A program made the translations under genes and the position numbers. From positions 78 through 64,077 of the forward strand of contig JBDSIO010000219.1 in the NCBI GenBank assembly GCA_039917895.1: 64,000 bases of DNA, written 5' to 3'. The first letter of the stretch is position 1. Each line of letters opens with the position of its first letter. Source of the stretch: Fibrobacteria bacterium (GTDB taxonomy: Bacteria; Fibrobacterota; Fibrobacteria; UBA11236). Under the pieces are notes generated by a model. That model was not told where the DNA came from. It was given only the letters and a program-made list of their open reading frames with translations, and ran no database searches. Shown here one piece after another: positions 27,444 through 53,973 of this stretch.

Positions 27444-27457
27444 TTGATCCGGATCAA
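27444..27457. promoter_or_regulatory. Perfect Crp/Fnr-family box TTGATCCGGATCAA
   Basis: TTGAT-N4-ATCAA palindrome in the divergent region between the Crp/Fnr-family regulator gene and the nxr operon. Confidence 0.4.
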
Positions 27458-27595
27458 GTCCGACCCGGCCTTCTTTCGCGTTGCACCGACGGAGCGCTGC
27501 TTTTGGACATAAGCTTCCGGATTGCCAAAATGACCGTAGATAAAGCGGTCCGGGTGGCCTCGGCGCGGCTACCTCTTTTAAGAGAGGAGGTGCCA

Positions 27596-28288: not shown

Positions 28289-28312
28289 ATCCGGGTTCCG
28301 CGGGAATTCCCG

Positions 28313-30498: not shown

Positions 30499-33400
30499 TC
30501 ATCCATGGCCGTGGAAATTCCCGGAAGCGGACCAATGGGTCATCGCCTGATCGATGTCCGCGGCATCCACCCGCGTCCTACCCTCGCCCTTGGCGCGGCG
30601 TTCGATTTCCTTCATTACCATGGGACGGATGAAGTCCGGGATGCGGGAAGTGCGGGCCGTGGCCGCTTCGCTCCACTCCAGCTCCGGCGCCATCTTGGCG
30701 GAGCCATCACCCCAGCTCCCGTATTTTCCGTCCATGATCTCCAGATCCACCACGTCCGCTCCTCCCGCGCGCGCCCATTTCTCGACGCGGCAGCGCGTCA
30801 TGGTGCGCATGAAGCCTTCCGGTACCCGTTCCAGCCTTTGCAGGGCTTCGGGTTTCCAGGCCAGGGTCTTGAAAGCGGAAGACTTGGCCTGGGCGCGCTT
30901 TTCCGCGCTCAAGCGGACGAAATGCCCGGTGCCGCAATTGGCGCAGACCGTCGGTTTGGCGCCGTCCAGGATAATGCCGCACAGGTGGCATTCCCAAGGA
31001 GCGATCTCCGAGGCATCGGAGGCTTCCGGCGTTGCGCTTGCCTGGGCGGAAGTTCGGGCCGGATCCGCGGAAGGGGTCGCGGCATGCGGGTTGGCGCCTT
31101 GGCCATGGGCATGCGGATTGACGCCATGGGCGTGGATATGACCATGCGCCCCGGGGTCTCCTTGGCCCGATCCCGTCATGCTTGCATGCATCTTCTCCCG
31201 GGCCTTGCCCAGCCCCGCTTCCGCCACCTCCAAGGTGATTTCCTTCGTTCCGGAGTTCAGGGCGTGTTCCTCCACCATGTTTTTCGCGGCCTTGCGCATG
31301 AATCCATCCGGCACCCGTTCCAGGCGCTTGACGGCATCTTCCGTCCAGGCCGGTCCTCCGAAGGCGTCGGAGGATATCGCCCCGGGCGCCGCTTCGGCGG
31401 CGGATACGGGGGCTGCGGGAGCAAGATCCGCGGTAGTGGGAACGGCGGTTGGCGCAGCGCCGATGCCGGCGGCGCGCAATTCGGCCTCCACCATCTCCAG
31501 GGTCACGGCCGTGATACGTTGGGTCAATGCCCGTTTTTCCAGGCGGTTGCGGATCTGCGCCGTCACCGTCGCATCCCCGGACTTTTCCAACAGGGCCAGC
31601 GCGGATTTCTCCCACATCAATTGCCGATCCCCCAGAGTTTCCAAGGACTGCCCTTCGCTGACGATGGCGCTTTCCAGCAGCTTGAACATATGCCCGCCCA
31701 TGCCGCAGATAGGGCAGGACTGGGGCCGGGATCCATGATGGACGTGGCCGCAGGCCTGGCATTTGAAGCTCAAGGCGATCTTGTCGTGGGAATCGCGCTC
31801 CTTGCCCTCGTCCGTGTCCACGATGCCCATGCGGGCCAGCGCAGCGGGAGGCAGCAGGGTTTTCAGGGCCGCGTTCAGGATCGACTCCGTGACCACGGTA
31901 TGGCCTTCGGCCACGCAATAGTTCTGGATCGCTTTCATCGCCATATTCTGCGCCATGGCCGGCACCCGTTGCATGCGGGCCTTGGCCTCGGTGGTCCAAC
32001 TCACGGTCTCCTCGGCCTGGAATTCCACCGGAGGCTTGGCCTTGGAATCCACCACCAATATGTTGCAGGGCGCCAGGCGGCACAGGTTCTCGGTGTTGCC
32101 GCCGATGTCCATGTCCTCGTCGCTATGGAAGCCGATACGGCCCACCACCAGCAGCCAGGGCGGCTCAGCCTTGACGAGCTGCAGGATCTTTTCGAAGGGT
32201 TTGCCATCCAACAAACGGATCTCGATGGCTACGCCCGCCTCTTCGGCCAGCCGCTTGGCGATGTTCAGGTAGGACTGGTAGATCTTGGCCAGCCCCGAGT
32301 CGATGATGTCTTCATGTAGCTTCTCCTGCTCTTCGAACTTGAAGACCTTACGCGCCTTTTCGGTGAGGGTCTTGTTCAGGCTTTTGAACATGGCATAATG
32401 GAAATAGGGGTCGAAGGCGGATACCGCCAGTACTTTCTTGTCCAATGTCTTCGCGAGCCGCATGGCCCGCTGCAGGCCGCCCCAGCTTCGGATGCTGCCG
32501 TCCAGGCAGACTATGATGGTGTCGGAGACGTTCTCTTCCACGGACATGCGCGTAAGCAGGACATCGCGGCGGACGCGGCGCAGCATGCGCTCGGCGACGG
32601 TGCCCAGTTGGGAATTGCCCACGCGGCCGACGCCGTGCGCGCCCAGGGCCACGAGATCGTAATCGTTGGCCGCGATGTCCTCGGCCATGGCCTTCCAATT
32701 CTTGCCTTCCAGGCTCACGGCGGCGAACTCCAGGTTATCGGTCTTGCAAGCGCCGGACATGGCCTCCAAATACGAGTCCGTGATCAGCTCCAGCCCTTTG
32801 GTGATCAGGCTGTCGTGGATCTTGCGCTGGCGGTTAAGTTCCTTCTCCTTCTGGAACTCCTCCGGAAGTCCGCCTTCCATGGCGCGGAAACGGTTGTCGT
32901 GCATCTTAGCCGCATACACGTGGCTGCCGATCATGCGGGCGCCTTCGCGCTTGCCGATCAGCATGGCCGTGCGCATGGCCTCGTTGGAAGGGACGGAACT
33001 GTCCAGGCCCACGTAAATGCGCGAGTATTTCCAGTCTACCGCCTTGGGCGCGGCTTCCCCATCGGGATGGGAGCCGGGCGCCTGGAAGGAGGGAACCGTT
33101 GCAGGGACGGCCTCAGCGGCCTCGGCAGCTATGGCGGTAACGGTGGCCGGGGCGGCCGCGGCGGCTATTGCAGACGGGGCGGAAGGGGCGGTTGCCGCAG
33201 CCGCCTCTAGGGTCGCGGCAGTTGCGGTCCCGGCGTCCTTCGGCCGCTCCAAAACCTCGCGGGCCTCCTTCATCAGTTCCATGGTGATGCGCGTGAACCC
33301 GCGCCCCTTGGCGTATTTTTCGATCTGCTCGGTGATGAACTGGCGGATCATGCCCGGGGCCCGGTTGATGGATTCAATGGCCTCGGGCTCCCATTCCATA

Positions 33401-34152
33401 CCGCCTTTGGAAGGCAGCATCACGATCTTACCGTCCTTTTCCGGAACCCGGAAAGGAGTCTTGTCGTGGATGGATGAGATCCAGAATACATAGGCGTAGG
33501 GGAATTCGTGTTGGGCGATATGGAAGCTGTCGTACTCGAACATTACGCGCGCCAGCTTCACGAATTCATGTCGCGGATCTTCCGGACCGATCACCTCCAC
33601 GGCCGCGTTGACCTGGAAGCTGATGTAGTCCGGGGCGTTGCCGGTATAGTGCAAAGCCGCCAGGGGCGTGGCCGAGATATTCCTGAAGGTGGTCTTTTCG
33701 AAAATCTCGAGGCTGCTCAGCGATCGGTAGTCGACCTTCTCCCGATCGAAATAGAAGCTGGAAACGGCTTTCAGCCTTTCCTGCAACGATTCCTGCCAGG
33801 GACGGCCGCGGGTGCGTTCAATCGTCTCCTTGAACAGGTTGACGTAGGATTCCAGGTATTCCCGCTTGGGCAGGAAGCCCACGCCTTTGTTGCCGCAATT
33901 GAACGGAAAGGTCTGGCCGCGCGCCTGGGTGATCATCACGGGCAGGTGCGAAGTGAAAAAGGCGGGATTCCCCTTTCCCAACAGCTTGTCGTACATGGCG
34001 CGGCGGCCTTGTTCGATCCACTCTATGTACCGCTCCGGCAGGCTTTCCATCGGCAGGTCGACCGGTCCCTCGGCCAGTTCCACGCGAAGGCGATCTCCTG
34101 CGACTACGACCTTGGGCAGGCCCTGAAATTGTCTGGCCGTATTCTGCTGCAT
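30499..34152 (-). CDS. 1217-aa multidomain protein: N-terminal ~270-aa unknown domain, six PCP_red-like repeats (protochlorophyllide-reductase ChlB C-terminal-domain-like), tandem universal stress protein (Usp) domains, two rubredoxin-like zinc ribbons, and Ala-rich and His-rich linkers
   Basis: Repeats of the form (L/M)xW(T/E)xEAxxRLxR(V/I)PxFxRxxxxxxxExxAxxxGxxxITxExxxxA occur six times (e.g. VSWTTEAKARMQRVPAMAQNMAMKAIQNYCVAEGHTVVTESILNA; PAWTEDAVKRLERVPDGFMRKAAKNMVEEHALNSGTKEITLEVAEAG). The Usp motifs are IYVGLDSS...GAHGVGRVGNSQLGTVAERMLRR and IIVCLDGS.... The zinc ribbons are CQACGHVHHG...CPICG and CHLCG...CANCG. There is an HGHIHAHGVNPHAHG His-rich segment. Confidence 0.7.
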   Translation of the reverse strand: MQQNTARQFQGLPKVVVAGDRLRVELAEGPVDLPMESLPERYIEWIEQGRRAMYDKLLGKGNPAFFTSHLPVMITQARGQTFPFNCGNKGVGFLPKREYLESYVNLFKETIERTRGRPWQESLQERLKAVSSFYFDREKVDYRSLSSLEIFEKTTFRNISATPLAALHYTGNAPDYISFQVNAAVEVIGPEDPRHEFVKLARVMFEYDSFHIAQHEFPYAYVFWISSIHDKTPFRVPEKDGKIVMLPSKGGMEWEPEAIESINRAPGMIRQFITEQIEKYAKGRGFTRITMELMKEAREVLERPKDAGTATAATLEAAAATAPSAPSAIAAAAAPATVTAIAAEAAEAVPATVPSFQAPGSHPDGEAAPKAVDWKYSRIYVGLDSSVPSNEAMRTAMLIGKREGARMIGSHVYAAKMHDNRFRAMEGGLPEEFQKEKELNRQRKIHDSLITKGLELITDSYLEAMSGACKTDNLEFAAVSLEGKNWKAMAEDIAANDYDLVALGAHGVGRVGNSQLGTVAERMLRRVRRDVLLTRMSVEENVSDTIIVCLDGSIRSWGGLQRAMRLAKTLDKKVLAVSAFDPYFHYAMFKSLNKTLTEKARKVFKFEEQEKLHEDIIDSGLAKIYQSYLNIAKRLAEEAGVAIEIRLLDGKPFEKILQLVKAEPPWLLVVGRIGFHSDEDMDIGGNTENLCRLAPCNILVVDSKAKPPVEFQAEETVSWTTEAKARMQRVPAMAQNMAMKAIQNYCVAEGHTVVTESILNAALKTLLPPAALARMGIVDTDEGKERDSHDKIALSFKCQACGHVHHGSRPQSCPICGMGGHMFKLLESAIVSEGQSLETLGDRQLMWEKSALALLEKSGDATVTAQIRNRLEKRALTQRITAVTLEMVEAELRAAGIGAAPTAVPTTADLAPAAPVSAAEAAPGAISSDAFGGPAWTEDAVKRLERVPDGFMRKAAKNMVEEHALNSGTKEITLEVAEAGLGKAREKMHASMTGSGQGDPGAHGHIHAHGVNPHAHGQGANPHAATPSADPARTSAQASATPEASDASEIAPWECHLCGIILDGAKPTVCANCGTGHFVRLSAEKRAQAKSSAFKTLAWKPEALQRLERVPEGFMRTMTRCRVEKWARAGGADVVDLEIMDGKYGSWGDGSAKMAPELEWSEAATARTSRIPDFIRPMVMKEIERRAKGEGRTRVDAADIDQAMTHWSASGNFHGHG

Positions 34153-34203: not shown

Positions 34204-35493
34204 CTATTTGAAATGGAAGCCGAGTTCGGCTTCCCGTTCGCGCTTATGGCGCGTCATCAATTCCGGAGTTACGGGTACGCCTTCGGTCCGGGCCCGCGCC
34301 TCCAACTTCCGTTTCACCACCGGCCTCAGGAACAACGGCAGCTTGGACAGCCGTTCCCGCGCTTCGGGGGTCCATACGACTTCCGTGTCCCCGTCCGGTT
34401 TCCGCACCGGTATGATCGCGCCCCCGGCCGGCTCGTATTCACAGCTGGGGTCTTCCGCCATGAGATTTCCCTTGGCCAGGGATCGGGCCCGGCAGCCCCC
34501 GCACACCAGCTTGTATTCGCAACCGCCGCAACGGCCCTCCAGCAGGGCCGGATTGCGCATGGAGGCCAGCAGCACCGAGTCGTCCCAGATCTTCCAGAAA
34601 CCGTCCCGTCGTACATTCCCGGCGGAAAGTTCCATGTACGGGCAAGGGGTGATCTCCCCTTTGGGGGTGATGCGGCAATAATGGCTGCCCGCCAGGCAAC
34701 CGCCGCCGTCGTAACCTTCGGCGCGCGTGTAGGGCGATGCGGGATCGGCTTGATGGAGGATGCGCTTGAAATGGGGCGTGCAGCGCGTTTGCACCAGGAT
34801 GCCTTTGGCCGTGGGTTGGATGGCGGCGATTTCCTTGAGCGCGGCTTCATATTCCGCGGCCGAGAGATCCATGGAGCCTTCGCCCCGGCCCACGCAGACC
34901 AGGAAGAAGAAATTGATGATGGACGCGCCGAGTTCGCGGGCCATGTCCACGGCTTGCGCAATCTCGCTCCGGTTCCATCGCGTTATCGTGAAGTGGATCT
35001 GGGCATGCATGCCGGCCGCGCGGCAATGTTTTACCGCCTCGCAAGTCCTGGCGAAAGCGCCGGGCATGCCCCGGAAAGAATCGTGGGCGCCGGGACGGAT
35101 GGAGTCCAGGCTGATCCCCATGCCTTCCAGGCCCGCCGCCCTGAGTTCCTCCGCGCGCTTGCGGTTCACCAGCACCCCGTTCGTGCCCAGCACCATCCGC
35201 AGACCCGCCTCCACTCCGGCCTTGACGAACCCGTCCAGGCCCGGATGCAACAGGGGTTCGCCTCCGGTGAGCACGATGATGGTACCCGGCGCCCGCGCGC
35301 CGATGTCGCGGAACAGGGATGCGACCTCCTCATCGGCCATCTCCCCGTCCATGACCGACGCCCGTTGGGTGGCGTCCATATAACAATGGGCGCAATTCAG
35401 GTTGCAACGCCGGGTCAGGTTTACGGCCACCAGGTACGGTTCAAACTCCCGCTCCCCGCGCCGTTCTTCCTTTTTTCCCGTTTCCATCGGCAA
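34204..35493 (-). CDS. Radical SAM / SPASM-domain enzyme (AhbC/NirJ/PqqE-like) with a C-terminal PCP_red-like domain
   Basis: CNLNCAHCY (CxxxCxxC). The SPASM Cys-rich region is GGGCLAGSHYCRITPKGEITPCPYM...CGGCEYKLVCGGCRARS. The C-terminal VVWTPEARERLSKLPLFLRPVVKRKLEARARTEGVPVTPE matches the repeat family in the adjacent 1217-aa protein. Confidence 0.75.
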   Translation of the reverse strand: MPMETGKKEERRGEREFEPYLVAVNLTRRCNLNCAHCYMDATQRASVMDGEMADEEVASLFRDIGARAPGTIIVLTGGEPLLHPGLDGFVKAGVEAGLRMVLGTNGVLVNRKRAEELRAAGLEGMGISLDSIRPGAHDSFRGMPGAFARTCEAVKHCRAAGMHAQIHFTITRWNRSEIAQAVDMARELGASIINFFFLVCVGRGEGSMDLSAAEYEAALKEIAAIQPTAKGILVQTRCTPHFKRILHQADPASPYTRAEGYDGGGCLAGSHYCRITPKGEITPCPYMELSAGNVRRDGFWKIWDDSVLLASMRNPALLEGRCGGCEYKLVCGGCRARSLAKGNLMAEDPSCEYEPAGGAIIPVRKPDGDTEVVWTPEARERLSKLPLFLRPVVKRKLEARARTEGVPVTPELMTRHKREREAELGFHFK

Positions 35494-35524: not shown

Positions 35525-36241
35525 TTAATACTCGAAGGCGACTTTCGCGTCCTTGCCCGCTTCCACCTTCACCTGCACGGTTTTCGCGCCCAGGGCCTCA
35601 TGCCAGATCTTCAACGTATAGGTTCCCGCGGGCACGTCGGCCAATATGAACTCCCCGGCCGGTCCGGTCACCGCCGCGTAGGGATGCGGCAAGGCCCAGA
35701 TGTATCCCTGCATGAAATCATGGGCATCGCACTCCACCGAGATCAGGCCTTCCTTGCGGAGGATTTTGGTGTTTTCCACGACCTGGCCCTTCTTAGGCAG
35801 CGCCATGTTGATCAGGTTCTTCTTGGCCGCGCCGTCCACCAGGTAGAAGTGCGAATTGTGGAGCATGTCGTCGTCGTTGCGCACTTTCAGGGTCGCGCCC
35901 ACCGGGGCCACAAGTACGTGGGGAGTGAACTTGCAATTGGTGTTGTCGTAGAAGATTTCGCCTGCCGCGGCTTTCTTGCCTTCCGCAATCTTGTCGATCA
36001 TCACCACGGCGAATTGGAGGCCGCCGCCCGCTCCCGTCACGTATTTTTGGGCCGCGATCTTGGCGCCGCACTGCTCCGGATTCTTGCTGACCACTTTCAT
36101 CTCGTCCGCCGGGGCCTTCCCTTTGATCTTGATGGCCCCGCTGATGCTGCCGCCGTTGGCGACGGCGATCTCCTTGTATTGCGCCGAGGCCGCCACGGCT
36201 CCGGCCAGCATGAACGCGCATAAGGTATTGATGGTTTTCAT
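35525..36241 (-). CDS. Periplasmic cupredoxin-like (type 1 copper) protein
   Basis: Signal peptide MKTINTLCAFMLAGAVAASA (RBS AACGGAGGA before the ATG at 36241). Candidate copper ligands are H in MLHNSHF and the C-x2-H-x2-M motif (VECDAHDFMQG), as in amicyanin/pseudoazurin. Confidence 0.5.
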   Translation of the reverse strand: MKTINTLCAFMLAGAVAASAQYKEIAVANGGSISGAIKIKGKAPADEMKVVSKNPEQCGAKIAAQKYVTGAGGGLQFAVVMIDKIAEGKKAAAGEIFYDNTNCKFTPHVLVAPVGATLKVRNDDDMLHNSHFYLVDGAAKKNLINMALPKKGQVVENTKILRKEGLISVECDAHDFMQGYIWALPHPYAAVTGPAGEFILADVPAGTYTLKIWHEALGAKTVQVKVEAGKDAKVAFEY

Positions 36242-36281
36242 TTCGATCCTCCGTTTTGGGATGGGTTTTCCATGGCTGGGC

Positions 36282-37394
36282 TCAGAAGAAGACATGCAGC
36301 CTTCCCACGATCTGGTTCTGGTTGTCCGCCGTGCTCTGAGGTATCCAATCGTTTTTCCGGTAATACAATCCCACCTGCAGGAATTGCATGATGAAGGGTT
36401 CGACGCCTACCACCACGCGGGTCTGATTGCTTTGCGCCTGGGGGATTGCCGTATTGCGCCAGAAGGACTCGTAGGTGACCTTGAAATTAAGTCCCTGCAT
36501 GGGCAGGAAGTCGACCTCGGTGTAGTCCTCGACCTTGTCGATGCCCTCATCCTTGGTGTAGTCGCGCTCCCCCAGGATGGTGAACATGCCCAAGGTGGTG
36601 CCGGCGAAAACGCCGTAAGATCCTTTGGTTTCCTTGAATTCCTTGGTAAGTTCCTTACTGTAGGAACCGCCCAGCCTGACGGTGCGCAGCACGGGCACTT
36701 CCCTGAACACGAAGGAGCCGACGCTCATCCATTTGGTCTGGGTGATGGAACTGACCAGGGACAGCGGCCCGGGTTCGAATCCCATTTCGTATGCCAGGGC
36801 CGTGGAACTGTAAGTGTAGCCGGTGAAGTTGCGCACGAAGGCATCATCGTCCATGAGCCGGTATCCGTATGGAAGCAGCATCTGGCCGAATTTCAAGTAG
36901 CTGTTGGCGGGCAGGGAAATCATGCTCCAGAGTTCGCGGAAGCCGCCTGCGGACATGTCCTTGTCGTAGTAAAGCTTCAACCGATCCTTGATCAGATCCA
37001 TCTCCACGTATAGGTTCTTCTCCTTGAAGGTGCCGGCGTTCCAGTTCCCCTCCACCATGCGCGCCGAATCCCCGGGGTTGGCGGGTTTGGTGGTGAACTG
37101 GCGGAGATACGCCTGTTCGATGCGGAAATTCGCACCCAGGGAGACGGAGTTGTTCAGCTTCGGATCGAAGGAATTGAGGTTCTTCTGCGCGAGTGTGGAA
37201 GCCACCAGCAGCTTGTATTGCGTATACACCTCTCCGAACTCGGTCCGCTTGCCGCCCCCCGTCCGGTTTACGTGGCATTGGCTGCATTTGAATCCCGTTC
37301 GGACGGCGATATAGGGCTCGGCGGAAACCAATCCGGTGGCCAGCAGGAACACGATCGCGATAGGTTTCCAGGGCATTGACGTTGACCGTTGCAT
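36282..37394 (-). CDS. Fused monoheme cytochrome c / outer-membrane beta-barrel (Cyc2-like cytochrome-porin)
   Basis: Signal peptide. A single CSQCH motif within about 15 residues of the predicted mature N-terminus. The remaining ~330 aa form alternating amphipathic beta-strands ending ...GRLHVFF (C-terminal Phe). This architecture matches Cyc2-type iron oxidases. Confidence 0.45.
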   Translation of the reverse strand: MQRSTSMPWKPIAIVFLLATGLVSAEPYIAVRTGFKCSQCHVNRTGGGKRTEFGEVYTQYKLLVASTLAQKNLNSFDPKLNNSVSLGANFRIEQAYLRQFTTKPANPGDSARMVEGNWNAGTFKEKNLYVEMDLIKDRLKLYYDKDMSAGGFRELWSMISLPANSYLKFGQMLLPYGYRLMDDDAFVRNFTGYTYSSTALAYEMGFEPGPLSLVSSITQTKWMSVGSFVFREVPVLRTVRLGGSYSKELTKEFKETKGSYGVFAGTTLGMFTILGERDYTKDEGIDKVEDYTEVDFLPMQGLNFKVTYESFWRNTAIPQAQSNQTRVVVGVEPFIMQFLQVGLYYRKNDWIPQSTADNQNQIVGRLHVFF

Positions 37395-37402
37395 ATCCGC
37401 GC

Positions 37403-38134
37403 CTAGTTCCTTCCCGTGATCCAGGTTTTAATGGTTTGGATGTCCTCGTCGGAGAGGGGCGCCGCCGCTTCGGCCGGCATCCTTACGCCGTAGGGCGGGG
37501 TCGCCTTGAAGATCTTCAGGAACAGGTAGCTGCTGTCCGGTACCCCCGGCAGCACCCGCATCATATTGATGTTTTTTACCGTCAGCATCTCGATCGACTT
37601 GATGTTGACCAGGCTGTCCCACGCCGCGCCCGATTCCAGAGTCAGCCTGGTTTGCATAAATCCGGTGCCGCCGGGCTTGATGTGGCATTTCTCGCAATGG
37701 GTCTTGAAGATGGGCAGCACGTTGGCCGTGAAAAAAGCCCGGTCCAGGCACTCCACCGGCTTGGGGAGCCTGGAACAATCGATGCAGCGCGAGGGAGGAT
37801 TGGGGAGTAGGCAAGAGTCCACTGCCACGCAACGCGCGGGAGGATTGGGCAAAGCGCAGGAATCGGGCACAGCGCAGCGCGCGGGGGGATTGGGGAGCAG
37901 GCAAGAATCCACCGCCAGGCAACGCGCGGGAGGATTGGGCAGAGCGCAGGAATCGACGACGCAGCCGGCTGAGGCGGGATTCGCGATGCAGGGATTCGGC
38001 TTGATGAGAGCTCCGCCGGCGGTCAGACCCACGCCGTCTCCGGCTTTCATGCAGGCGATGAACAGGGCGGGAATAACGATGGCAGCCGCCAGCAGTCGGG
38101 ATTTCCCGCGCAGCCCTTGTTGCAAGCGGTTCAT
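37403..38134 (-). CDS. Lipoprotein c-type cytochrome with five tandem Cys-containing 14-15-aa repeats
   Basis: Lipobox (ALFIAC). Repeats DSC(A/L)LPNPPARC(L/V/A)AV occur five times, followed by a class I cytochrome c domain with CEKCH. It overlaps the downstream cytochrome gene (ATGA-type coupling at 38131-38134). Confidence 0.6.
   Translation of the reverse strand: MNRLQQGLRGKSRLLAAAIVIPALFIACMKAGDGVGLTAGGALIKPNPCIANPASAGCVVDSCALPNPPARCLAVDSCLLPNPPARCAVPDSCALPNPPARCVAVDSCLLPNPPSRCIDCSRLPKPVECLDRAFFTANVLPIFKTHCEKCHIKPGGTGFMQTRLTLESGAAWDSLVNIKSIEMLTVKNINMMRVLPGVPDSSYLFLKIFKATPPYGVRMPAEAAAPLSDEDIQTIKTWITGRN
37790..37975. repeat. Coding tandem repeat (~42-45 nt unit, 5 copies) inside the lipoprotein cytochrome gene
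   Basis: Repeated cgcgcgggaggattgggcaaagcgcaggaatc-like units are visible on the + strand and encode the Cys-Pro-rich peptide repeats. Confidence 0.6.
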
Positions 38135-39153
38135 GGCGTCACCTCCGTGTCTTTCGTGAACAGGATGAAAAAGGGATTCGGCTTACGGATCAGGGAGCGG
38201 ATGTAATGGACCAAGGCCCATTTCCTTTTTTCCCCAAGGGCGTTCCGCTGTTCGGCCGGCATTTTTTGCAACGCTGCTTCCGTCGGTTGGGTGAGCAGCC
38301 AAGCCTGCAACTGATCGATTTCGGCGGCCGGATAGGCTTCCTTGTACTTGACCGGATCCACCGTAGCGTCTCCGGAAATGAGGAAACCGTCGAGAGCGTA
38401 GGCGGGCATGGGCGTGCCGTTGAGGCCGGTGGTGAAGGTGCGGTACAGGGTCCCGGCGTCGTTCCCCGCCTTGTAGCGATACGCGGTCAGGTTCCAGGGG
38501 AGGATTTTGCGGCCCCAGTCATCGTCCAGGGTCTTACCGGATTTCCCATCGCCTTTGCCGGAGCCGCCGTGGCAGGCCCAGCATTCCATCAGCATGTACA
38601 CCAGCTTGCCCTCCTTTACCGCTTGCGGAGTACTCTCGGGAACCGCGGGAACCTCCATGGGGGAGGGCGCGCCTTCCTTGAAATCCGGAGAAAAAGTCTT
38701 GAGGAAGGCGACCACGTCCAGGCGCTCCTGCAGGGTAAGAGTCGTCCCCCAGGCCGGCATCTGCGTTCCCGGAACCCCTTTTTCCACGATGGCCAGCAGA
38801 TCCGCATCGGTGGGCAGCTCTCCGCTCGGGGTCGAACGGAATTTGAACATGCCCGCGGTGAAATCGCGCGGCCGCGGATTCAGGTATTGGCCCGCGGCGC
38901 TCCGGCCGTCGCCGTTTTCGCCATGGCAGGCCGCGCAGGATTTGGAGTAGACGGCTTCGCCCCGGGACAGGGAAGGCGATGACAAAGCCGCCTGGGCGGG
39001 CCCGGAGGCGGCGCTTGCCCCGTGTAATGCCACGATGGCGGCAAAACCGATCGCCCGCGAAAGACGGCCGGACAGGTTGAGGGGATAGGCATTCAAGATG
39101 TACCTCCCGTTTCTCTCATTCATGGGTGGATACCACATCAAATTCCATACCAT
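38131..39153 (-). CDS. Periplasmic diheme c-type cytochrome
   Basis: Signal peptide. CAACH and CWACH motifs. Alternative starts at 39138/39123. Confidence 0.65.
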   Translation of the reverse strand: MVWNLMWYPPMNERNGRYILNAYPLNLSGRLSRAIGFAAIVALHGASAASGPAQAALSSPSLSRGEAVYSKSCAACHGENGDGRSAAGQYLNPRPRDFTAGMFKFRSTPSGELPTDADLLAIVEKGVPGTQMPAWGTTLTLQERLDVVAFLKTFSPDFKEGAPSPMEVPAVPESTPQAVKEGKLVYMLMECWACHGGSGKGDGKSGKTLDDDWGRKILPWNLTAYRYKAGNDAGTLYRTFTTGLNGTPMPAYALDGFLISGDATVDPVKYKEAYPAAEIDQLQAWLLTQPTEAALQKMPAEQRNALGEKRKWALVHYIRSLIRKPNPFFILFTKDTEVTP

Positions 39154-40845: not shown

Positions 40846-41654
40846 TCCGCGCGCTCCTGGGCCCTGGGTTTCTGCCCCGTGAACCGGTAGAGGAATAGGA
40901 TGACGTCCCAGATTTCATCCTCGGAAAGGAATTTCTCCCAGGCCGGCATCGCCGAGGCCCAAGGAGTAGACTCTTCGGGAAGGCCCGGACCTCCCTTCGC
41001 GATGCGCCAGAAGAGGTAGGACTCCTGCAACATGGCGATGGTGGTGGGATCCTGGAAATTGGCGGGCAGGGGATCGAAGCCGTGGGAATGGATGCCGTCC
41101 CCTTTCAGGTTGTCCCCGTGGCAGAACACGCAGTTCCGGTAATACACCTTGCGGCCGTCCGCCACGTGCGCGTCGAAGGCCGCCGCATCCTTGTCCTCCA
41201 GCTCCCGAAAGGGATTCGACGCCGTGAGCAGGTTGATCTTCTTGCCCTTGAAATCCATCTCCCCCGGCGGGGCGGGATGGATGGTGCGCGCATTTGCCGG
41301 GGCCGCCACCTCCCGCGAGGCGTCTCGGTAGGCCGCGTAGCCGGCCAGCAAAGGGATGATCGCGGCCAAGGTCCAGAGCAACGGGGCGAAACGCCGTTCC
41401 GTAAAGAAGCGCAGCAGGGCAAGCGAAGCCGTGCGCAAGCGTCCCGAATCCGCCGAGAGATAGATGAGCAGCACGGCCGTGAGCACGGCCAGGTATAGGC
41501 CGATGATGGACGAAGGCAGCGGCGGCGTCAACGCGTAATTCAAGACCAGGAAGAATCCCGACCACCAGGCCCCCATCCAGACGAGGATGGGCGGCTTCAG
41601 GAAGCGCAGTCCTATCAGCACCAGCAGAACGGGCCCGAGTATCAGCAGGTTCAC
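40842..41654 (-). CDS. Polytopic membrane protein with a C-terminal monoheme cytochrome c domain
   Basis: Four predicted TM helices followed by CVFCH. Its start overlaps the upstream gene's stop and its stop overlaps the downstream gene's start. Confidence 0.6.
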   Translation of the reverse strand: MNLLILGPVLLVLIGLRFLKPPILVWMGAWWSGFFLVLNYALTPPLPSSIIGLYLAVLTAVLLIYLSADSGRLRTASLALLRFFTERRFAPLLWTLAAIIPLLAGYAAYRDASREVAAPANARTIHPAPPGEMDFKGKKINLLTASNPFRELEDKDAAAFDAHVADGRKVYYRNCVFCHGDNLKGDGIHSHGFDPLPANFQDPTTIAMLQESYLFWRIAKGGPGLPEESTPWASAMPAWEKFLSEDEIWDVILFLYRFTGQKPRAQERAE

Positions 41655-42469
41655 CGCTTCCCCCTTTGCGCGGAAAGGTACGCGACCATGGCCTTGATGT
41701 CCCCGGCGGAGGTCTTGTCGTAGAATCCCGATGCCTTGAGCGTATTGGCCATCAGGCCCTTGGGATATCCCTTGGGCGTTACCGCATCCGGATCCATGAT
41801 GGATTCGGAGATCAGGCTGGGTTTGAGACGCTTGCCGACATCGAAGAGACTGGGGCCCACCAGCTTGCCGGGCTGATCCAGCCTATGGCAACCGGCGCAT
41901 CCGTTAACGGTCAACAACTCCTTGGCGGTCCTGGGGACCGTGGTTGCCGCGGAAGCGGCCGGGGCGGCCGGACCATCATTTGCGACCGTACCGGAGGGCG
42001 AAAACGCGTGACGGGTCAGCATAGTGACGTTCGGCGTACCGCCCAGGCTTTGCAAGTAGGCGATCACGGCCATGATTTCCCCGTCGGAAAGATTGATGGG
42101 CGGCCCATGGATGGGGGGCATGCCGGGGCTGTAGCCTTCGACGATGAAAGCGTTGGGTTCGTAGATGGACTGGGCCAGGTACTCCACATCCGACATTCCC
42201 GGCCTTTGCTTGCCGGCGCGGGCGCCGATGCCGCCCAGATCCGGGAACCGCCCGGGCTTGTCCGATCCGATGGTATGGCAGCCCAGGCAGGTGCCCTTAC
42301 CGCCCACGATTTCCTGGCCGGCCTGGACCAGGTCATCCGTGGTCATGTCCGCACGTACCTCCAGATCCTTGGGAGGGTGGACCTCCTTCTGCGGGACCAT
42401 CTGCCCGATGTAGGCGTAGAACGCCGTGACCAGCACGGTGAAGAGGATGATCTTCAATACGTTGATCAT
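41651..42469 (-). CDS. Membrane-anchored diheme c-type cytochrome
   Basis: This is the real 272-aa gene embedded at the C-terminal end of the artifactual 695-aa track ORF. It starts MINVLKIILFTVLVTAFYAY (TM helix), then CLGCH and CAGCH. Its ATG at 42469 overlaps the upstream gene's TGA (ATGA). Confidence 0.6.
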   Translation of the reverse strand: MINVLKIILFTVLVTAFYAYIGQMVPQKEVHPPKDLEVRADMTTDDLVQAGQEIVGGKGTCLGCHTIGSDKPGRFPDLGGIGARAGKQRPGMSDVEYLAQSIYEPNAFIVEGYSPGMPPIHGPPINLSDGEIMAVIAYLQSLGGTPNVTMLTRHAFSPSGTVANDGPAAPAASAATTVPRTAKELLTVNGCAGCHRLDQPGKLVGPSLFDVGKRLKPSLISESIMDPDAVTPKGYPKGLMANTLKASGFYDKTSAGDIKAMVAYLSAQRGKR

Positions 42470-44520
42470 GGCGCCGCCTCCTTCCCCGTGTCCCAATCCT
42501 TGCGGCCCGAAAGGCTGGTGAGCCAGAAGACGATGGAGATGAAGGCGAAGAAGATCAGCACCGTCACCGACACCACGATGGAGGCGAACCCCAGGGTGGG
42601 CGTGAAGGCGTCGACGGATTCGTCCCGCATCACCCCGTAGACGTGCCAATGCTGGCGGATGCCGGAGCGGACGTAGCCCATCAGCCCCATCAGCCAGGTG
42701 AAGGTGATGGCGATGAGGATCAGCGCGTATTGCGAGCGCATCGGCATTTTCCCCCAGCGGATTTCGCCCGTGGTGCGCGCGTTGCGGAACATGAAAATGT
42801 CGATGACGGTCACGGAGATCATGGCCGTGAGCACCGAAGCGACCTGGGGGACGGAAAGCCGGATGCGCACCTTGGCTTCCACGAAATAGCCCAGCACGCC
42901 CAGGGCGATCACAAAGAGCGCGGTGAGGGCGAAAATCAGGAACTGGGCCAGGTTGCCTTTGGCGGCCCAAGGCGCGATGGATCGCTTGTTGCCCCGGCGG
43001 TAGAGCAGGAAGCTGACATAGGTGGTCAGGATCAGGATGTTCACGGCGGTGTTCTTGGCCGACATCACTCCCAGCACGCCCAGGGCGGGATGATGCGCGC
43101 CGCCCATCTTGCGCGCCTCCTCCACGGTAGCCACCAGGGAATGCGGCGTCGCCCACACCAGGAAGCACACCGTGATCGAGCCCAGCAGCCATTTGATGAA
43201 CTTGCGGAAGCGTTCCGCCCCTTCGATGCGTTCCATGCCCAGCCACAGGTAATAGTTGGCGGCCAGGAACAGGGTGCCGATCAACACCGCCTGGATGATG
43301 AAAAGCCAGGAGAAAGCGCCGCCCATCAGGGTCATGCCCATGTTCTGGGAATAGGCGTAGATCTCCTTGCCCAGCCAATACCCCGCGAAAGGCAGCGGGA
43401 GCAGGGCGCTGATGGCGATGAAGTTTCCGATGTACCCCATCCAGTCGTAATGGGCCCGTTCCTCGTCCGTCTTGGCCCCCATGAACTTGAAAGCGCCGTA
43501 AGCTCCCGCGATGGATCCGCCGAAGGCGATATTGGCGATCAGACGATGCACGTTGATGGGCATCCAGGTGAAGTTGTGCACCGCCTGCCAGCGGTTGACC
43601 AGTTCGCCCGACTGGGTGATTCCATTGGGGGAATTCATGAAGGTGAGCCACGCATCCGCGATGCAGATGATGGCGACCCCGACCAGGTTGAGGCAGACGC
43701 CGAGGGCCAGGTGCACGCGCGGATGGAACTTTCCCCAACCGTAATAGTAGGCGTACATGAAGATGGCCTCGGCGAAGAACAGGGCTACATAAGGCATGAA
43801 GGTCCAGCTGAAGATGGAGACCAGGTAGGCGGTCAGTTTGGGATACAGAATCAGTAGCATAAAGGTGAGCATCGCGCCCAGGGAGGCCGTGAACGAAAAG
43901 GACGTGGACAGCAGCTTGGTGAATTCATGGGCGAGATGATCGTATTTGCGATCCTTGGTGCGGTACCCGATGTATTCGATGGTCAAGGCGAACATGGGCA
44001 CCGCCAGCACGAAGGCGGCGAACATCAAATGCAGCTGGGCCACGATCCAGATGGCCACGCGGCTGCCGATGACCGGGAACCTGCGGTAAGCGGGTTCGGA
44101 GCCGGGTTTGGTATTCGCGTAAACCTTGGGCGGCTGCGCAACCGGCGCGCCTGGAGCATGGGCCTTGAGTATCCAGGTCACGATGGTAGTGATGTCCTCG
44201 ATGGAAAGCGCGGGATGGGCCGGCATGGGCACGGCGCCCCAGGCCCCCGCGCCTCCGGCATGCACCTTTTCCGCCAATCGGGCGATGTCGGCCGTACCGT
44301 ATTTCGCCGCGATTTCCTTGAAGGCGGGTCCCACCACCTTATGGTCCGGCTGATGGCACACGAGGCAATCGCTCTGCTTCATCAATTCCTGGGCATTCTG
44401 GGCCTTCTGGGCCTTCACGGCCTCCTCACCCCCTGCCGGCGCGGCTCCGAGACACAGCAACGCCAACAGCGCCGCCAACCGCCAAGCAAAGCGTTTCCGG
44501 CGGATGATTCCCTGATCCAT
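42466..44520 (-). CDS. Cytochrome c551/c552-like domain fused to a cytochrome bd-like (CydA-related) polytopic membrane protein; putative novel terminal oxidase or quinol-interacting module
   Basis: 684 aa. Signal peptide. CLVCHQPDHKVVGPAFKEIAAKYG...IVTWIL is a class I cytochrome c domain. At least 12 TM helices follow, similar to the cytochrome bd subunit I family. It is the first gene of the array. Confidence 0.65.
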   Translation of the reverse strand: MDQGIIRRKRFAWRLAALLALLCLGAAPAGGEEAVKAQKAQNAQELMKQSDCLVCHQPDHKVVGPAFKEIAAKYGTADIARLAEKVHAGGAGAWGAVPMPAHPALSIEDITTIVTWILKAHAPGAPVAQPPKVYANTKPGSEPAYRRFPVIGSRVAIWIVAQLHLMFAAFVLAVPMFALTIEYIGYRTKDRKYDHLAHEFTKLLSTSFSFTASLGAMLTFMLLILYPKLTAYLVSIFSWTFMPYVALFFAEAIFMYAYYYGWGKFHPRVHLALGVCLNLVGVAIICIADAWLTFMNSPNGITQSGELVNRWQAVHNFTWMPINVHRLIANIAFGGSIAGAYGAFKFMGAKTDEERAHYDWMGYIGNFIAISALLPLPFAGYWLGKEIYAYSQNMGMTLMGGAFSWLFIIQAVLIGTLFLAANYYLWLGMERIEGAERFRKFIKWLLGSITVCFLVWATPHSLVATVEEARKMGGAHHPALGVLGVMSAKNTAVNILILTTYVSFLLYRRGNKRSIAPWAAKGNLAQFLIFALTALFVIALGVLGYFVEAKVRIRLSVPQVASVLTAMISVTVIDIFMFRNARTTGEIRWGKMPMRSQYALILIAITFTWLMGLMGYVRSGIRQHWHVYGVMRDESVDAFTPTLGFASIVVSVTVLIFFAFISIVFWLTSLSGRKDWDTGKEAAP

Positions 44521-44865: not shown

Positions 44866-44920
44866 ATTGCAAGGCGGACCAAGTTGCAAGGCGGACCAAG
44901 TTGCAGGACCAAGTTGCAAA
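44866..44920. repeat. Direct repeat array, four copies of (A)AGTTGCA(A) / GGACCAAGTTGCA, in the divergent intergenic region
   Basis: The sequence reads tTTGCAAGGCGGACCAAGTTGCAAGGCGGACCAAGTTGCAGGACCAAGTTGCAAAACG. The TTGCA half-sites are spaced 17, 17 and 13 bp. The array lies upstream of nnrS and on the far side of the cyt c-bd-like operon promoter region. Confidence 0.5.
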
Positions 44921-46175
44921 ACGAACAACACAGGACGAACGGACGAAAATGATTCAGGCCCTCGCTTCTAAAACCGCCAAACCATCCGCCATCGATTGGC
45001 AAGGCCTCCGTCAGGAGCCCTACCGCCTGCTGTTCCCACTCGGCATCTCGCTCGCCGCCGTCGGTATCGGCCTATGGATCCCGTTCTACCTGTGGCCGGA
45101 AGCCGTCGGCTTTCCCGGCCAGGCGCATGCGGTCATCCTGATCCAGGGCTTTCTGTTGTGCTTCATCTTCGGCTTCCTGGGAACCATGATGCCGAAGGTG
45201 CTGGGTGTGCGTCCGCTCAACACCCCGCAATTCGCCATCTTCCCCATCGCCCTCGTCGGCCTCGCCGTCGCCTCCTTGGCCGGCGCCCCGCGCCTGGCCC
45301 AGATCCTGCATCTCTGCTTGCTAGCCAATTTCGCCGTTTTCATCGCCCTGCGGTTCCCGCGCCGAACTTCGAATCCGCCACCGGCATTCGCGTTCATCGC
45401 CGTGGCCATGCTCGCCGACATCGCGGGCACCCTCCTAAAGTTGGCGGCGCTCTCCGATCTGCTCGGGGCCACCGCCTCGCGGGCCGGCGCGCTCCTGCAA
45501 TACCAGGCCTTTCCCTTGCTTCTCATCCTGGGCGTGGGAGGCTTCCTGCTGCCGAAGCTGTTCGCCAACGGCCCCATCGATCCGGCCTCCTTGCGCGACT
45601 CCGCGGCTTCAGGACCGGGACGCCCGCTGGCGCTCGCGGCGCTCTTCCTGATCAGCTTCGGCGTGGAAATCCTTTCCCTGCATCGCGGGTACGGAGACGC
45701 CGGCTTGCGCGCGGCTTACGGCCTGCGGGCCGCGGTGTGGATCTGGTTCATCCTCCGCGACATCCGGATCCATAAAGTCCCCGGCAAGCTGCCGCTCTAT
45801 CTCTTCGGAGCCCGCGTTTCGCTCATCGTGATCGGAGCAGGACTGCTGCTGCCCGTTTTCCGCCCCGCCTATTTGCTGGCCTGGGAGCACGTGATCTTCC
45901 TTTCCGGATTCCTGCGGCTCACCCTGTCCATCGCTTCGCGCGTGGTTGCGGCCCATTCCGGCCGCCTGGAGATCCTGGGCCTGCACCGCAAGAAGGTGCG
46001 CGTCTACGGGATGCTGATCGTTTTTGCCATGTTCACGCGCATCGCATCCGACTTCTGGCCCAAAAGCCATTGGATGCATATCGCCATCGCCGCCGCCGTG
46101 GCCATGACCGCCATCGCGATCTGGTCCGGCATCTTCTTTCCCTTGTTGCGGGTGCATCCCGGCGGGAAGGTCTGA
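44901..46175 (+). CDS. nnrS: NnrS-family heme-copper membrane protein (NO-stress associated)
   Basis: About 400-aa polytopic membrane protein with NnrS-like conserved His positions. The alternative start at 44949 is plausible. Confidence 0.7.
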   Translation: MQDQVAKRTTQDERTKMIQALASKTAKPSAIDWQGLRQEPYRLLFPLGISLAAVGIGLWIPFYLWPEAVGFPGQAHAVILIQGFLLCFIFGFLGTMMPKVLGVRPLNTPQFAIFPIALVGLAVASLAGAPRLAQILHLCLLANFAVFIALRFPRRTSNPPPAFAFIAVAMLADIAGTLLKLAALSDLLGATASRAGALLQYQAFPLLLILGVGGFLLPKLFANGPIDPASLRDSAASGPGRPLALAALFLISFGVEILSLHRGYGDAGLRAAYGLRAAVWIWFILRDIRIHKVPGKLPLYLFGARVSLIVIGAGLLLPVFRPAYLLAWEHVIFLSGFLRLTLSIASRVVAAHSGRLEILGLHRKKVRVYGMLIVFAMFTRIASDFWPKSHWMHIAIAAAVAMTAIAIWSGIFFPLLRVHPGGKV

Positions 46176-46180
46176 GCACG

Positions 46181-46250
46181 CACCTCAATCATCCTCCATC
46201 ATCCTCAATCGTCCTCAATCGTCCTCAATCGTCCTCAATCGACCTCAATC
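46181..46250. repeat. Seven tandem 10-bp units (TCCTCAATCG and variants) in the 5' leader of nrdJ
   Basis: acctcaatca tcctccatca tcctcaatcg (x4) acctcaatca, between the nnrS stop (46175) and the nrdJ start (46263). Confidence 0.55.
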
Positions 46251-46262
46251 AAAAGGAACGGC

Positions 46263-49200
46263 ATGAAGTTCACCAGGCGGTTCACGGCAGAGGGATCCGA
46301 CCCCTACGACGCATTCCAATATGAAACCCGGACCTCCAGGATCCGCGGCGCGGGCCAGAGCGAAGCGCTCGAGGTGGAGGTTCCGAAGACCTGGTCCCAG
46401 ACCGCGGCGGACATCCTCGCCCAGAAATACCTGCGGCGCAAGGACGCGGAGGGACGCCCGGGAGAGAATTCGGTGAAGCAAGCCGTGGACCGGCTGGCGG
46501 GATGCTGGACGCATTGGGGCGCGAAGCTGGGATACTTCGATACCCCGGCCGATGAACGCGCATTCCATGATGAAACAGTGCACATGCTGCTCGCGCAGAT
46601 GGCCGCCCCGAATTCACCGCAATGGTTCAACACCGGCCTGCATTGGAAGTACGGAATTACCGGCGGAGCGCAAGGGCACTACTACGTGGACCCGGCGGAT
46701 GGCTTCGTGAAGGCGTCCGCCGACGCCTACTCCCGGCCGCAACCGCATGCTTGCTTCATCCAATCGGTCGAGGACGATCTGCTCGGCGCCAACGGACTCT
46801 ATGGATTGCTCGCCAAGGAAGGCCGGATCTTCAAATACGGTTCTGGGACCGGAACCAATTTCAGCGCCATCCGGGCCGCGGGCGAACCGCTCATGGGGGG
46901 CGGGAATTCGTCGGGCCTCATGTCCTTCCTCAAGGTGTTCGATCGCGCCGCCGGCGCCATCAAATCGGGAGGCACCACGCGTCGCGCCGCCAAGATGGTC
47001 TGCCTGGATCTGGATCATCCCGAGATCGAGGATTTCATCGCCTGGAAAAGCCGCGAAGAGGCCAAGGTGGCGGCCCTCGTGGCCGGTTCCAGACTTATCC
47101 GTTCGCAAATGCGCGAGTCCAAGGTCACGGCGGACGGCCGCGCCCCCGTGGGCGCCGTCGGAACGGAGGGAGCCCCCGGAATATCGGGAATCGCGGGAAC
47201 GGAATTCATCCCCGAAGGCCTCCTACAACGCAACGCCTCCCTGATCGCACAAGGTTTGGTTCCGCCGGTGATGGACGAATTCGATTCCGGGTTCGAAGGC
47301 GAAGCCTACGCCACCGTCAGCGGCCAGAACTCCAACAACTCCGTACGCGTTCCCGACGCCTTCCTCACCGCCGCCCTGGAAGACGGGGACTGGAACCTCA
47401 CCGCGCGCACCGACGGCAAGGTGATGAAAACCGTAAAGGCCCGGGCCCTGCTCGACAAGGTTTCGCTGGCGGCCTGGGAAAGCGCCGACCCGGGGGTGCA
47501 GTTCAGCGACACCATCAACCAATGGCATACCTGCCCGGCGGACGGCCCCATCCGCGCCTCGAATCCCTGCTCCGAATACATGTTCCTGGACGACACGGCC
47601 TGCAACCTGGCCAGCCTGAACCTGGTGCGCTTCCAGGACGCGGACGGCAACCTCAAGATCGAGGACTTCCGCCACGCCATCCGCATCTGGACCGTGATCC
47701 TGGACATCTCCGTGGGCATGGCGCAATTCCCTTCCCCGGAGATCGCCCGCCGCACCCATGACTTCCGCACCCTGGGATTGGGCTACGCCAATCTGGGCGC
47801 GTTCCTCATGCGCGCGGGCATTCCCTATGACAGCGCGCGCGCCGCCGCCTGGACCGGGGGCATCACCGCCATCCTGGGCGGAACGGCTTATGCCGCGTCG
47901 GCTGAGCTGGCGAAGGCGTTGGGGTCTTTCCCACGCTTCGAACCCAACCGCGCGGACATGCTGCGGGTCATCCGCAATCACAACCGCGCCGCGTTGGGCG
48001 AAAAAGGAGGTTTCGAGGGTCTGACGACGGAACCCCTGGGTCTGGACCCGGATTCGTGCCCGGCCGACCTGGCCGCGGCGGCCCGGGACGCCTGGGGAGA
48101 TGCCCTGGCGGCGGGGGAAACCCACGGGTACCGTAATGCTCAGGTTACCGTGCTGGCGCCGACAGGAACCATCGGGCTGGTAATGGATTGCGACACCACC
48201 GGCATCGAACCGGATTTCTCCCTGGTCAAGTTCAAGAAACTGTCCGGGGGCGGCATGCTGAAGATCGTGAACCGCTCCTTGCCGGTCGCCTTGCGCCGTC
48301 TCGGCTACGACTCCCGTCAGGCCTCCGCCATCGTAGCCTATTGCCTGGGTTCGGGCACGCTGGAAGGCGCGCCCTACATCGACGCCCCGACGCTGGCCCT
48401 TCGCGGCTTCCCCGCCGACCGCATCGCCGCCGTCGAGCAGGCGCTGGGGCGCAGCCTTTCCCTGCAGGACGCGTTCTCCCCTTACGTGCTCGGAGAGGAT
48501 TTCCTCAAGTCCCTCGGCATCCCCGCGTCCGAGGTCGCGGCCGGCGGCCAGGAGATCCTTGAGGACCTGGGATTCTCCGCCGCCGAAATCGATCTCGCCG
48601 ACCGCGTCATCTGCGGCAGCCAGACCGTGGAAGGCGCGCCTTTCCTGGAACCGGAACATTACGCGGTCTTCGACTGCGCCAATCCCTGCGGGCGCGGCAC
48701 CCGTTGCGTCTCCCCCGCCGGGCATCTCAACATCATGGCCTCGGCCCAGCCCTTCCTGAGCGGCGCCATCTCCAAAACCGTGAACCTGCCGGCGGAAGCG
48801 TCCGTGGCTGATGTGGAAGGCGTCTATCTCGCCGCCTGGCGCATGATGATCAAAGCCGTGGCCGTCTACCGGGACGGAAGCAAATTGTCGCAGCCCCTCA
48901 ACTCCAAGGTCCGCAAACAGGAAGCCGCCCCCGCGATCCATCGCAAGGAGGCGGGTTGCGCGGCCGTCGGCCGTCCGCAGCCCGCCCAGAAGGCACCGGG
49001 GGCCTCCGGGGCTCCCGCCGCCACACTCGCCGCCTCTCTCGCCACAATCACCCCATCGGCCCTCACCCAGGCCCCTTCGCCCGCTCCGGCCCCCGCGCCG
49101 CAACCCGCGCTCCAGTCTCCCTGCCGGCCCGCGGTGCGCATCCGCTTGCCCACCCGCCGCGGTGGCTATGTGCAGGAGGCGACCATCTCCGGCCACAAGG

Positions 49201-52865: not shown

Positions 52866-52870
52866 GGCCC

Positions 52871-53950: not shown

Positions 53951-53973
53951 GATTGTCCCTTAATCCTTTTCCT

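Follow-up and report, generated by a model that had tools for sequence, protein, structure and literature searches.

This analysis concerns a 64,000-nucleotide (nt) stretch of contig JBDSIO010000219.1 from a Fibrobacteria bacterium, called the window below, and in it one minus-strand gene (37403..38134) that encodes a 243-amino-acid (aa) lipoprotein monohaem cytochrome c. Its lipid anchor is joined to its haem domain by a spacer built of six C-x8-C units. Our reading, to which we give a probability of roughly 0.55, is that this spacer is a disulfide-stapled stalk of labile copy number, which determines how far a tethered electron carrier can reach. It is most likely the spacer of a tethered cytochrome and not a new kind of system, and as such would not surprise a specialist. 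What is new is the tandem C-x8-C linker within this known design, in a family that, like its partner porin, is undescribed in the literature searched.

The spacer covers aa 49-129 (37748..37990, minus strand) and is delimited by its Cys spacing. Twelve Cys residues form six C-x8-C loops (37961-37990, 37919-37948, 37874-37903, 37829-37858, 37784-37813, and 37748-37777, all on the minus strand), and the gaps between successive Cys along the linker are 8, 4, 8, 5, 8, 5, 8, 5, 8, 2, and 8 residues. Four of the units (aa 61-120; 37775..37954, minus strand), identified by Tandem Repeats Finder (TRF) and by unit alignment, are near-identical and 15 aa (45 nt) long, each consisting of DSC[AL]LPNPP[AS]RC and three further residues. 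They are flanked by two divergent C-x8-C units, CIANPASAGC (aa 49-58) and CSRLPKPVEC (aa 120-129). The preliminary description of this DNA, made from the sequence before any search, had counted five near-identical repeats with ten regularly spaced Cys in an array of ~45 nt period at 37790-37975. The tandem units and their period are real, while the number of near-identical units is four, the number of Cys is twelve, and TRF places the array at 37784-37957.

Over this span TRF reports a period of 45 nt (3.8 copies, 73% match) as well as one of 90 nt (1.9 copies, 91% match). The 90-nt super-period is also seen in the identity between units at the DNA level, which is 93% for units 1 and 3 and 64-73% for the remaining pairs. 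Rapid repeat variation of the slippage type is unlikely, since the array is neither fresh nor near-perfect. Comparison of the 12-codon core DSCxLPNPPxRC over eight units (from the window gene and from P0002, locus L087) gives 113 codon differences that are synonymous and 34 that are nonsynonymous, the latter confined to three positions. The loop peptide is under strong purifying selection. A six-frame translation of the 64-kb window contains no other C-x8-C array.

The gene was taken from the list of open reading frames (ORFs), and its product is a 100% match to P0001, the 'hypothetical protein ABIW76_10340' of the NCBI Fibrobacteria bacterium metagenome-assembled genome (MAG). A GGAGGTG Shine-Dalgarno sequence stands 5 nt before the start, and the ATG shares 4 nt (ATGA) with the stop codon of the upstream dihaem cytochrome c gene. 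The same DNA has an ORF on the plus strand (37566-38159, 197 aa), which was rejected as a by-product of the repeat; it is the minus frame that has conserved homologues with haem motifs. The relatives comprise 15 sequence homologues and about 50 positional orthologues. The 15 homologues are from independent metagenomes, and all of them have the lipobox, the Cys repeats, and the haem domain. In short-read MAG assemblies tandem repeats can be miscounted, and the preliminary description had itself named an artefact, or absence of the repeats from all homologues, as grounds for giving it up. A collapsed or expanded repeat is almost certainly not what is seen here: a second assembler (the Logan assembly of run SRR26386590, 2829 nt) yields window positions 35903-38731 at 100% identity with the repeat included, the units are 7-36% apart in DNA and so are separable during assembly, the reading frame is unbroken, and homologues of other samples also carry two to four LPNPP-type units.

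The unit itself is defined by comparison within the family. In 27 distinct linkers of the C-x8-C type the number of Cys is always even, from 6 to 18, and gaps of 8 residues (in rare cases 10, 11, or 13) alternate strictly with gaps of 2-7 residues. The true unit is therefore the C-x8-C loop, present in three to nine copies, and its consensus over 108 units is C-x-[LA]-[NPD]-P-x-[PAL]-[AP]-[GR]-C. Close relatives of the window protein have two, three, or four units of the LPNPP type, and the linker of locus L006 tolerates insertions inside the loops. At least five lineages have recent unit duplications of their own (P0005, P0009, P0138, L010, and a two-unit block in L001), so copy number has changed repeatedly. 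Variation in repeat number, which the preliminary description thought plausible, is thus found among the homologues.

Positional orthologues have the same motif after the lipobox and the same haem domain, and only the stretch between the two varies. In KSB1-like and many Fibrobacteria loci this stretch is short (29-43 aa) and has no Cys. It is a 57-aa, Pro/Asp-rich, and likewise Cys-free linker in two loci (L014 and L015), a 141-aa linker with a beta-sandwich-like insert of roughly 110 aa in Calditrichota-type loci (L040-L042), and a linker with another Cys-rich pattern in L043. The C-x8-C arrays measure 76-155 aa. To judge from these alignments, the hypervariable spacer between two conserved ends can most likely be filled in several interchangeable ways, of which the array is one, and because positional orthologues use Cys-free linkers, the region would act as a spacer and not as a chemical site. 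Long spacers, with or without Cys, are found mainly in loci that also have a large cytochrome cluster and genes for CarboxypepD_reg, radical S-adenosylmethionine (SAM), and PCP_red proteins. Short spacers are found in minimal loci of dihaem cytochrome c, lipoprotein cytochrome c, and porin. A further variant is P0156 (110 member sequences), which instead has a C-terminal Big_5 immunoglobulin-like domain.

The array is not covered by any entry of Pfam or NCBIfam (all members were compared), by PDB sequences (phmmer, 0 matches), or by the profile comparison with PDB. When 1.84 billion representative proteins were searched with the linker by phmmer, 11 matches were obtained, and P0138 is the sole further true relative among them. 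The module would therefore have arisen within the lipoprotein cytochrome family, without being shared with other proteins. A general-purpose module common to other protein families was considered and rejected, as 10 of the 11 matches are unrelated low-complexity sequences or probably non-coding. Two of the unrelated predicted 'proteins', P0136 and P0142, consist of repeats containing CALPNPPRWRVVSREG and resemble a translated repetitive DNA element; the CALPNPP string that they have in common with the window protein seems coincidental. No counterpart of the tandem C-x8-C linker was found in the searchable literature, the family was not found in literature on Cyc2, bd-like oxidases, and cytochrome tethers, and PMC10654088 makes no mention of the phyla relevant here. 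The statement of the preliminary description that no characterised cytochrome has this module holds for Pfam, NCBIfam, PDB sequences, and the literature searched.

The other parts of the protein are those of a lipid-anchored cytochrome, as had been described at the outset: a lipobox, a CxxCH motif, and a Cys/Pro repeat module in the N-terminal part. The signal peptide with its lipobox (MNRLQQGLRGKSRLLAAAIVIPALFIA, then C28; 38051..38134, minus strand) was recognized from the translation and by a regular expression for the lipobox, a PROSITE-style pattern. It has a positive n-region (R3, R9, K11, and R13) followed by the hydrophobic stretch LLAAAIVIPALFIA and then by C28, and the lipobox AIVIPALFIAC ends at this Cys. 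Cys28 is invariant in the 15 homologues and in the alignment of distant orthologues. The 243-aa protein has the features of a bacterial lipoprotein signal peptide, from which lipidation is predicted. With Met instead of Asp as residue +2 after the lipid Cys, the protein would go to the outer membrane under the E. coli rule, which is not established for Fibrobacterota.

Directly after the lipobox is a conserved motif, MKAGDGVGLTAGG (38012..38050, minus strand), identified in the alignment of homologues and distant orthologues. Its family pattern is C-x(0-4)-G-[DSN]-G-x-G-L-x3-G, which contains GDGxGL; in distant orthologues G32 and G34 are invariant, and G36, L37, and G41 are nearly so. The motif is kept with every linker type and is the most conserved part of the protein besides the haem motifs (orthologues including L006-L085 and P0147-P0164). 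It is possibly a docking or sorting segment. In three short-linker orthologues (P0157, P0158, and P0162) a single C-x8-C (e.g., GDGVCLNTDGNDTCG) lies within this motif, which suggests spatial proximity of positions i and i+9 in the segment and hints at a possible origin of the loop unit.

The C-terminal part (aa 130-243; 37406..37747, minus strand) is a monohaem cytochrome c domain, recognized by a weak Pfam match together with invariant residues. It contains the invariant CxxCH haem motif CEKCH (aa 147-151; 37682-37696, minus strand) and a putative distal ligand, Met219-Pro220 (37475-37480, minus strand), which is invariant in the alignments. The invariant residues of the domain are C147, C150, H151, M219, P220, W238, and I239. 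Pfam Cytochrome_CBB3 (PF13442) reaches 21.6 bits, short of its cut-off of 27 (E=2.8e-4), and this weak match is present in 12 of 15 family members. In the profile comparison with PDB the best match is cytochrome c6, which is marginal (E=0.16). The AlphaFold2 (AF2) model, built from the 15-sequence alignment, has a C-terminal helix at 229-240, with a mean predicted local distance difference test (pLDDT) score of 61.6 for the whole protein; Foldseek gives no significant match of this whole-protein model in PDB. CxxCH, the distal Met, and the C-terminal helix are thus those expected of class I, with Met as the predicted ligand, and the curated profile score is not reached. By its residues the domain is a divergent class-I-type cytochrome c below the Pfam threshold, and the class I assignment of the preliminary description stands with this qualification.

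In the reading that we prefer, the protein would be exported by the Sec route and anchored by lipid, and would consist of the lipid Cys, the GDGxGL segment, the hypervariable spacer, and the haem domain. Each C-x8-C unit would close upon itself by an intramolecular disulfide from Cys i to Cys i+9, and six such stapled loops in a row, each small, proline-rich, and protease-resistant, would make up a semi-rigid stalk. Its length would be altered by tandem duplication and loss of units, and would fix how far the haem domain travels from the anchor. The haem domain would then shuttle electrons between the haem of the outer-membrane porin encoded next to it and the other c-type cytochromes and bd-like oxidase of the same gene cluster. 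We infer the membrane and the face on which the protein is carried, as well as its partners and the direction of electron flow.

Disulfide formation with nearest-neighbour pairing is most likely. It is favoured by Cys residues that are strictly paired, with a conserved length of the loops and a variable length between them, and by the tolerance of insertions within loops in L006. The Sec route leads to an oxidising compartment, as c-type cytochrome maturation requires, and export into this compartment again favours disulfide loops. A crystallographic precedent is provided by the outer-membrane lipoprotein cytochrome MtrC, in which a CX8C disulfide closes an 8-residue loop (PMC4486940).

Several points weigh against this reading. 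No gene of the Dsb or thiol-oxidoreductase type is seen among the ORFs scanned in the 64-kb window, and the residues of the array are modelled by AF2 at low confidence (pLDDT 40-60). The purifying selection on the LPNPP loop exceeds the need of a passive spacer; it suggests a specific conformation or a binding partner, which a passive spacer alone does not explain. Since loop closure shortens the chain, 'reach' may not be the property selected. The protein may be on the periplasmic face of the outer membrane, on the inner membrane, or on the cell surface. In addition, the neighbouring porin lacks the strict Cyc2 signature, so that iron oxidation, or the use of any particular substrate, is only a possibility.

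Among the alternatives, a redox-gated tether fares best, and we still consider it unlikely. The six latches would be thiol switches that open under reducing or anoxic conditions and close under oxic ones; opening would lengthen or loosen the stalk or alter partner binding, and electron flow through the porin would follow redox state or O2. The CX8C of MtrC, which has the same spacing, is a redox-active disulfide and an O2 switch in an outer-membrane lipoprotein cytochrome that works with a porin (PMC4486940, PMC9973256). The long C-x8-C linkers are found mostly in loci with the bd-like oxidase cluster, genes for O2 and N-oxide respiration abound in the window, and such a switch would account for a loop constraint greater than a passive spacer needs. 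However, the motif of MtrC is single and lies in a folded, flavin-related beta-barrel domain of a decahaem protein, so the likeness is one of spacing only, and otherwise identical clusters have Cys-free linkers (L014, L015), which makes the Cys dispensable for basic function. An extensible variant, slightly less likely again, would have each disulfide latch about 10 residues, so that redox state or O2 sets reach or the choice of partner and the flow through the Cyc2-like conduit. At our estimate of about 3 nm for each loop, the contour length would grow by roughly 15-20 nm once all six are reduced. If true, this tether would do in several steps what the one CX8C oxygen switch of MtrC does in a single step.

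About as unlikely as this variant is a surface-exposed stalk or binding module, in which the lipoprotein is flipped outward like MtrC, OmcA, and PgcA and the Pro-rich loops serve as an extracellular protease-proof stalk or attach to a mineral or a partner. Extracellular proteins typically have disulfide-rich repeats of this sort, the conserved motif after the lipobox could be a sorting signal, and the loop sequences are under purifying selection. A precedent is the lipoprotein cytochrome PgcA: its low-complexity Pro-Thr repeats both tether its domains and bind to metal oxides, namely Fe(III) oxides (PMC10570954). Against a surface location, no export machinery or signal was identified, the other cytochromes of the cluster appear periplasmic, and short-linker orthologues would pin the haem domain to the membrane on either face.

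The preliminary description had offered disulfides or metal binding for the regularly spaced Cys, the latter as a copper- or iron-chelating tether. Disulfides fit better, given the even number of Cys in 27 linkers, the constant x8, and the MtrC precedent, and nothing points to metal. That 12 reduced thiols bind Cu(I), Fe, or another thiophilic metal is improbable, even though the Cys are many and regularly spaced and the cluster has a metal- and redox-related context. In the unit logo there are neither CxxC or CxC motifs nor His or Met partners, and the Cys are strictly paired at a fixed 8-residue spacing. Paired Cys of exported proteins are normally oxidised, as is established for Dsb systems. 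No metal-binding family is matched, and positional orthologues in the same type of cluster work with Cys-free linkers (L014, L015).

Human IgG3 has a hinge of 15-residue Cys/Pro repeats. The likeness of these to the present array, with its 15-aa Cys/Pro-rich period and two Cys per unit, would fit an inter-chain disulfide hinge in which at least two copies of the array are zipped in parallel into a dimeric stalk. This is decidedly improbable, as the fixed spacing within units and the variable spacing between them favour closed loops, the loop insertions of L006 would upset the register of a zipper, and the CX8C precedent in MtrC is intramolecular.

The weakest of the functional alternatives concerns a radical SAM/SPASM enzyme encoded in the same cluster (34204-35493, minus strand), which would cross-link the Cys repeats by thioethers, in the manner of ranthipeptides or QhpC. 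Its gene is conserved two genes downstream in several C-x8-C loci. Co-occurrence fails both ways, and this role was rejected on that ground: L014 and L015 have the enzyme with a Cys-free linker, while L013, L017, and L033 have C-x8-C units and no such enzyme within 4 kb. The substrate would also have to be a Sec-exported lipoprotein, and the enzyme, which has a tetrapyrrole-associated PCP_red domain at its C-terminus, is closest to AhbD and NirJ2 (haem and haem-d1), far below the cut-offs; as the substrate of such an enzyme the array is hardly credible.

Directly downstream of the cytochrome gene is a gene for a fused haem-porin (36282..37394, minus strand) with a signal peptide, a single CSQCH, and a 16-strand barrel, as judged by AF2 and Foldseek. 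The protein has 370 aa (364-370 aa in homologues); CSQCH stands close to the mature N-terminus, and the last residue is Phe. AF2 models it with 16 beta-strands at a predicted template modelling (pTM) score of 0.69, and the best matches in PDB by Foldseek are OprP (2o4v) and OprO (4rjx and 4rjw). It has no match in Pfam or NCBIfam. There are at least 366 homologues, all annotated 'hypothetical', and they are spread over phyla of the FCB group including Fibrobacterota, KSB1, Calditrichota, Gemmatimonadota, Latescibacterota, and others. The porin was used to retrieve 80 genome loci, and in about 40 of these its gene has that of a lipoprotein cytochrome c directly upstream.

Cyc2 is a 16-strand porin for which OprP and OprO are reported as structural matches (Keffer et al. 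2021, PMC8406198). The haem-porin is like Cyc2 in having a signal peptide, one N-terminal CXXCH, about 365 aa, and a 16-strand barrel similar to OprP and OprO. The Cyc2 signature consists of AXPXFAR[Q/K][T/Y] 5 aa before CXXCH and PXL 4 aa after it (PMC8406198). Here the corresponding segment is AEPYIAVRT, which agrees at 5 of 9 motif positions with an offset of 3 instead of 5, and PXL is absent. Because this signature fails, the protein is called a haem-porin of Cyc2 architecture and not Cyc2.

On the other side of the lipoprotein cytochrome, directly upstream, is the gene for a 340-aa dihaem cytochrome c (38131..39153, minus strand) with two Pfam Cytochrom_C matches. Such a gene is upstream of the lipoprotein cytochrome in most loci. 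The three genes are part of a minus-strand cluster that begins with a bd-like subunit fused to cytochrome c and two cytochromes c, continues with a dihaem cytochrome that has an ethylbenzene-dehydrogenase-type haem domain, the dihaem cytochrome c, the lipoprotein cytochrome, and the haem-porin, and ends with a CarboxypepD_reg/cupredoxin-like protein, the radical SAM/SPASM protein, a 1217-aa protein, and an alginate-export-type porin. The same order is found in other Fibrobacterota contigs.

The first of these proteins is like subunit I of cytochrome bd with an N-terminal cytochrome c fusion (42466-44520, minus strand) and resembles the 'bd-like' oxidases discussed for Nitrospirota. A 695-aa ORF that overlaps it (41651-43738, minus strand) is probably over-extended, since related loci have a cytochrome c of 161-280 aa there. 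The protein next to the haem-porin (256 aa; 35525-36295, minus strand) has a weakly cupredoxin- or amicyanin-like middle part and a C-terminal beta-sandwich like CarboxypepD_reg, and in long-linker loci it is conserved directly downstream of the haem-porin. The 1217-aa protein (30499-34152, minus strand) has five PCP_red domains, two Usp domains, and a rubredoxin-like domain. Several Fibrobacterota loci have it, together with the radical SAM/SPASM gene, in synteny with the cytochrome cluster, and at a guess this pair has a role in tetrapyrrole or haem modification. The window as a whole is a respiratory island (2000-6578, 22401-25880, 27356-28897, 44901-49742, 51504-56040, and 61697-63025). 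It includes a fused CcoN-CcoO cbb3-type oxidase, a FixG-like protein, a molybdopterin oxidoreductase, a Crp-family regulator, hemerythrin, NnrS, a class II ribonucleotide reductase, NosD, a NosZ-like propeller protein, and another protein of the COX1 family.

Membrane-anchored monohaem cytochromes with Ala/Pro-rich, Cys-free linkers include cytochrome c_y of Rhodobacter, c-551 of Bacillus, and c-553 of heliobacteria. The present protein is like c_y and the Gram-positive lipoprotein cytochromes c in having an anchor, a low-complexity linker, and a class-I-type monohaem domain, and in both cases the tether would keep a mobile carrier near its partners. It differs in its tandem C-x8-C loops and its outer-membrane haem-porin partner, and c_y is anchored by a transmembrane helix; neither to c_y nor to the Gram-positive lipoprotein cytochromes was any sequence relationship detected. 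A further parallel is found in Neisseria, where the H.8-type lipoproteins (the lipid-modified azurin Laz, and Lip) have linkers of AAEAP pentapeptide repeats. These too space a lipid-anchored redox carrier by imperfect tandem repeats of variable number, while their repeats are of Ala, Glu, and Pro without Cys and their redox domain is a cupredoxin.

PgcA of Geobacter sulfurreducens, a 'haem-tethered redox string', is likewise a lipoprotein c-type cytochrome with a tether of proline-rich tandem repeats, but it has three haem domains, (Pro-Thr)n repeats without Cys, and is released outside the cell (PMC10570954). No homology to PgcA was detected, in searches none of which was aimed at PgcA. The window protein has the architecture of PgcA-like tethered lipoprotein cytochromes, which is an architectural class and not a homology family. 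With MtrC, OmcA, MtrF, and UndA it has in common that a lipoprotein cytochrome goes together with an outer-membrane porin and has the C-x8-C spacing (PMC4486940, PMC9973256). In contrast to MtrC, which has a single motif in beta-barrel domain III of a decahaem protein, it has one haem, and the spacing occurs six times in tandem, in a linker outside any decahaem beta-barrel domain.

These findings do not overturn current understanding. Tethered carriers recur as a means of electron transport across the cell envelope, and the effects of tether length and stiffness have been studied mostly with engineered linkers. The family described here provides a natural series of linkers on one scaffold: short, Pro/Asp-rich, folded-domain, and three to nine loops of the disulfide type. 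The string of C-x8-C loops is a compact motif and potentially a rigid, protease-resistant, or redox-responsive linker. The series adjoins an uncharacterised Cyc2-like haem-porin that is widespread in five named phyla. Dihaem cytochrome c, lipoprotein cytochrome c, and haem-porin form a conserved three-gene module, which is a candidate route of outer-membrane electron transfer in phyla for which none has been characterised so far.

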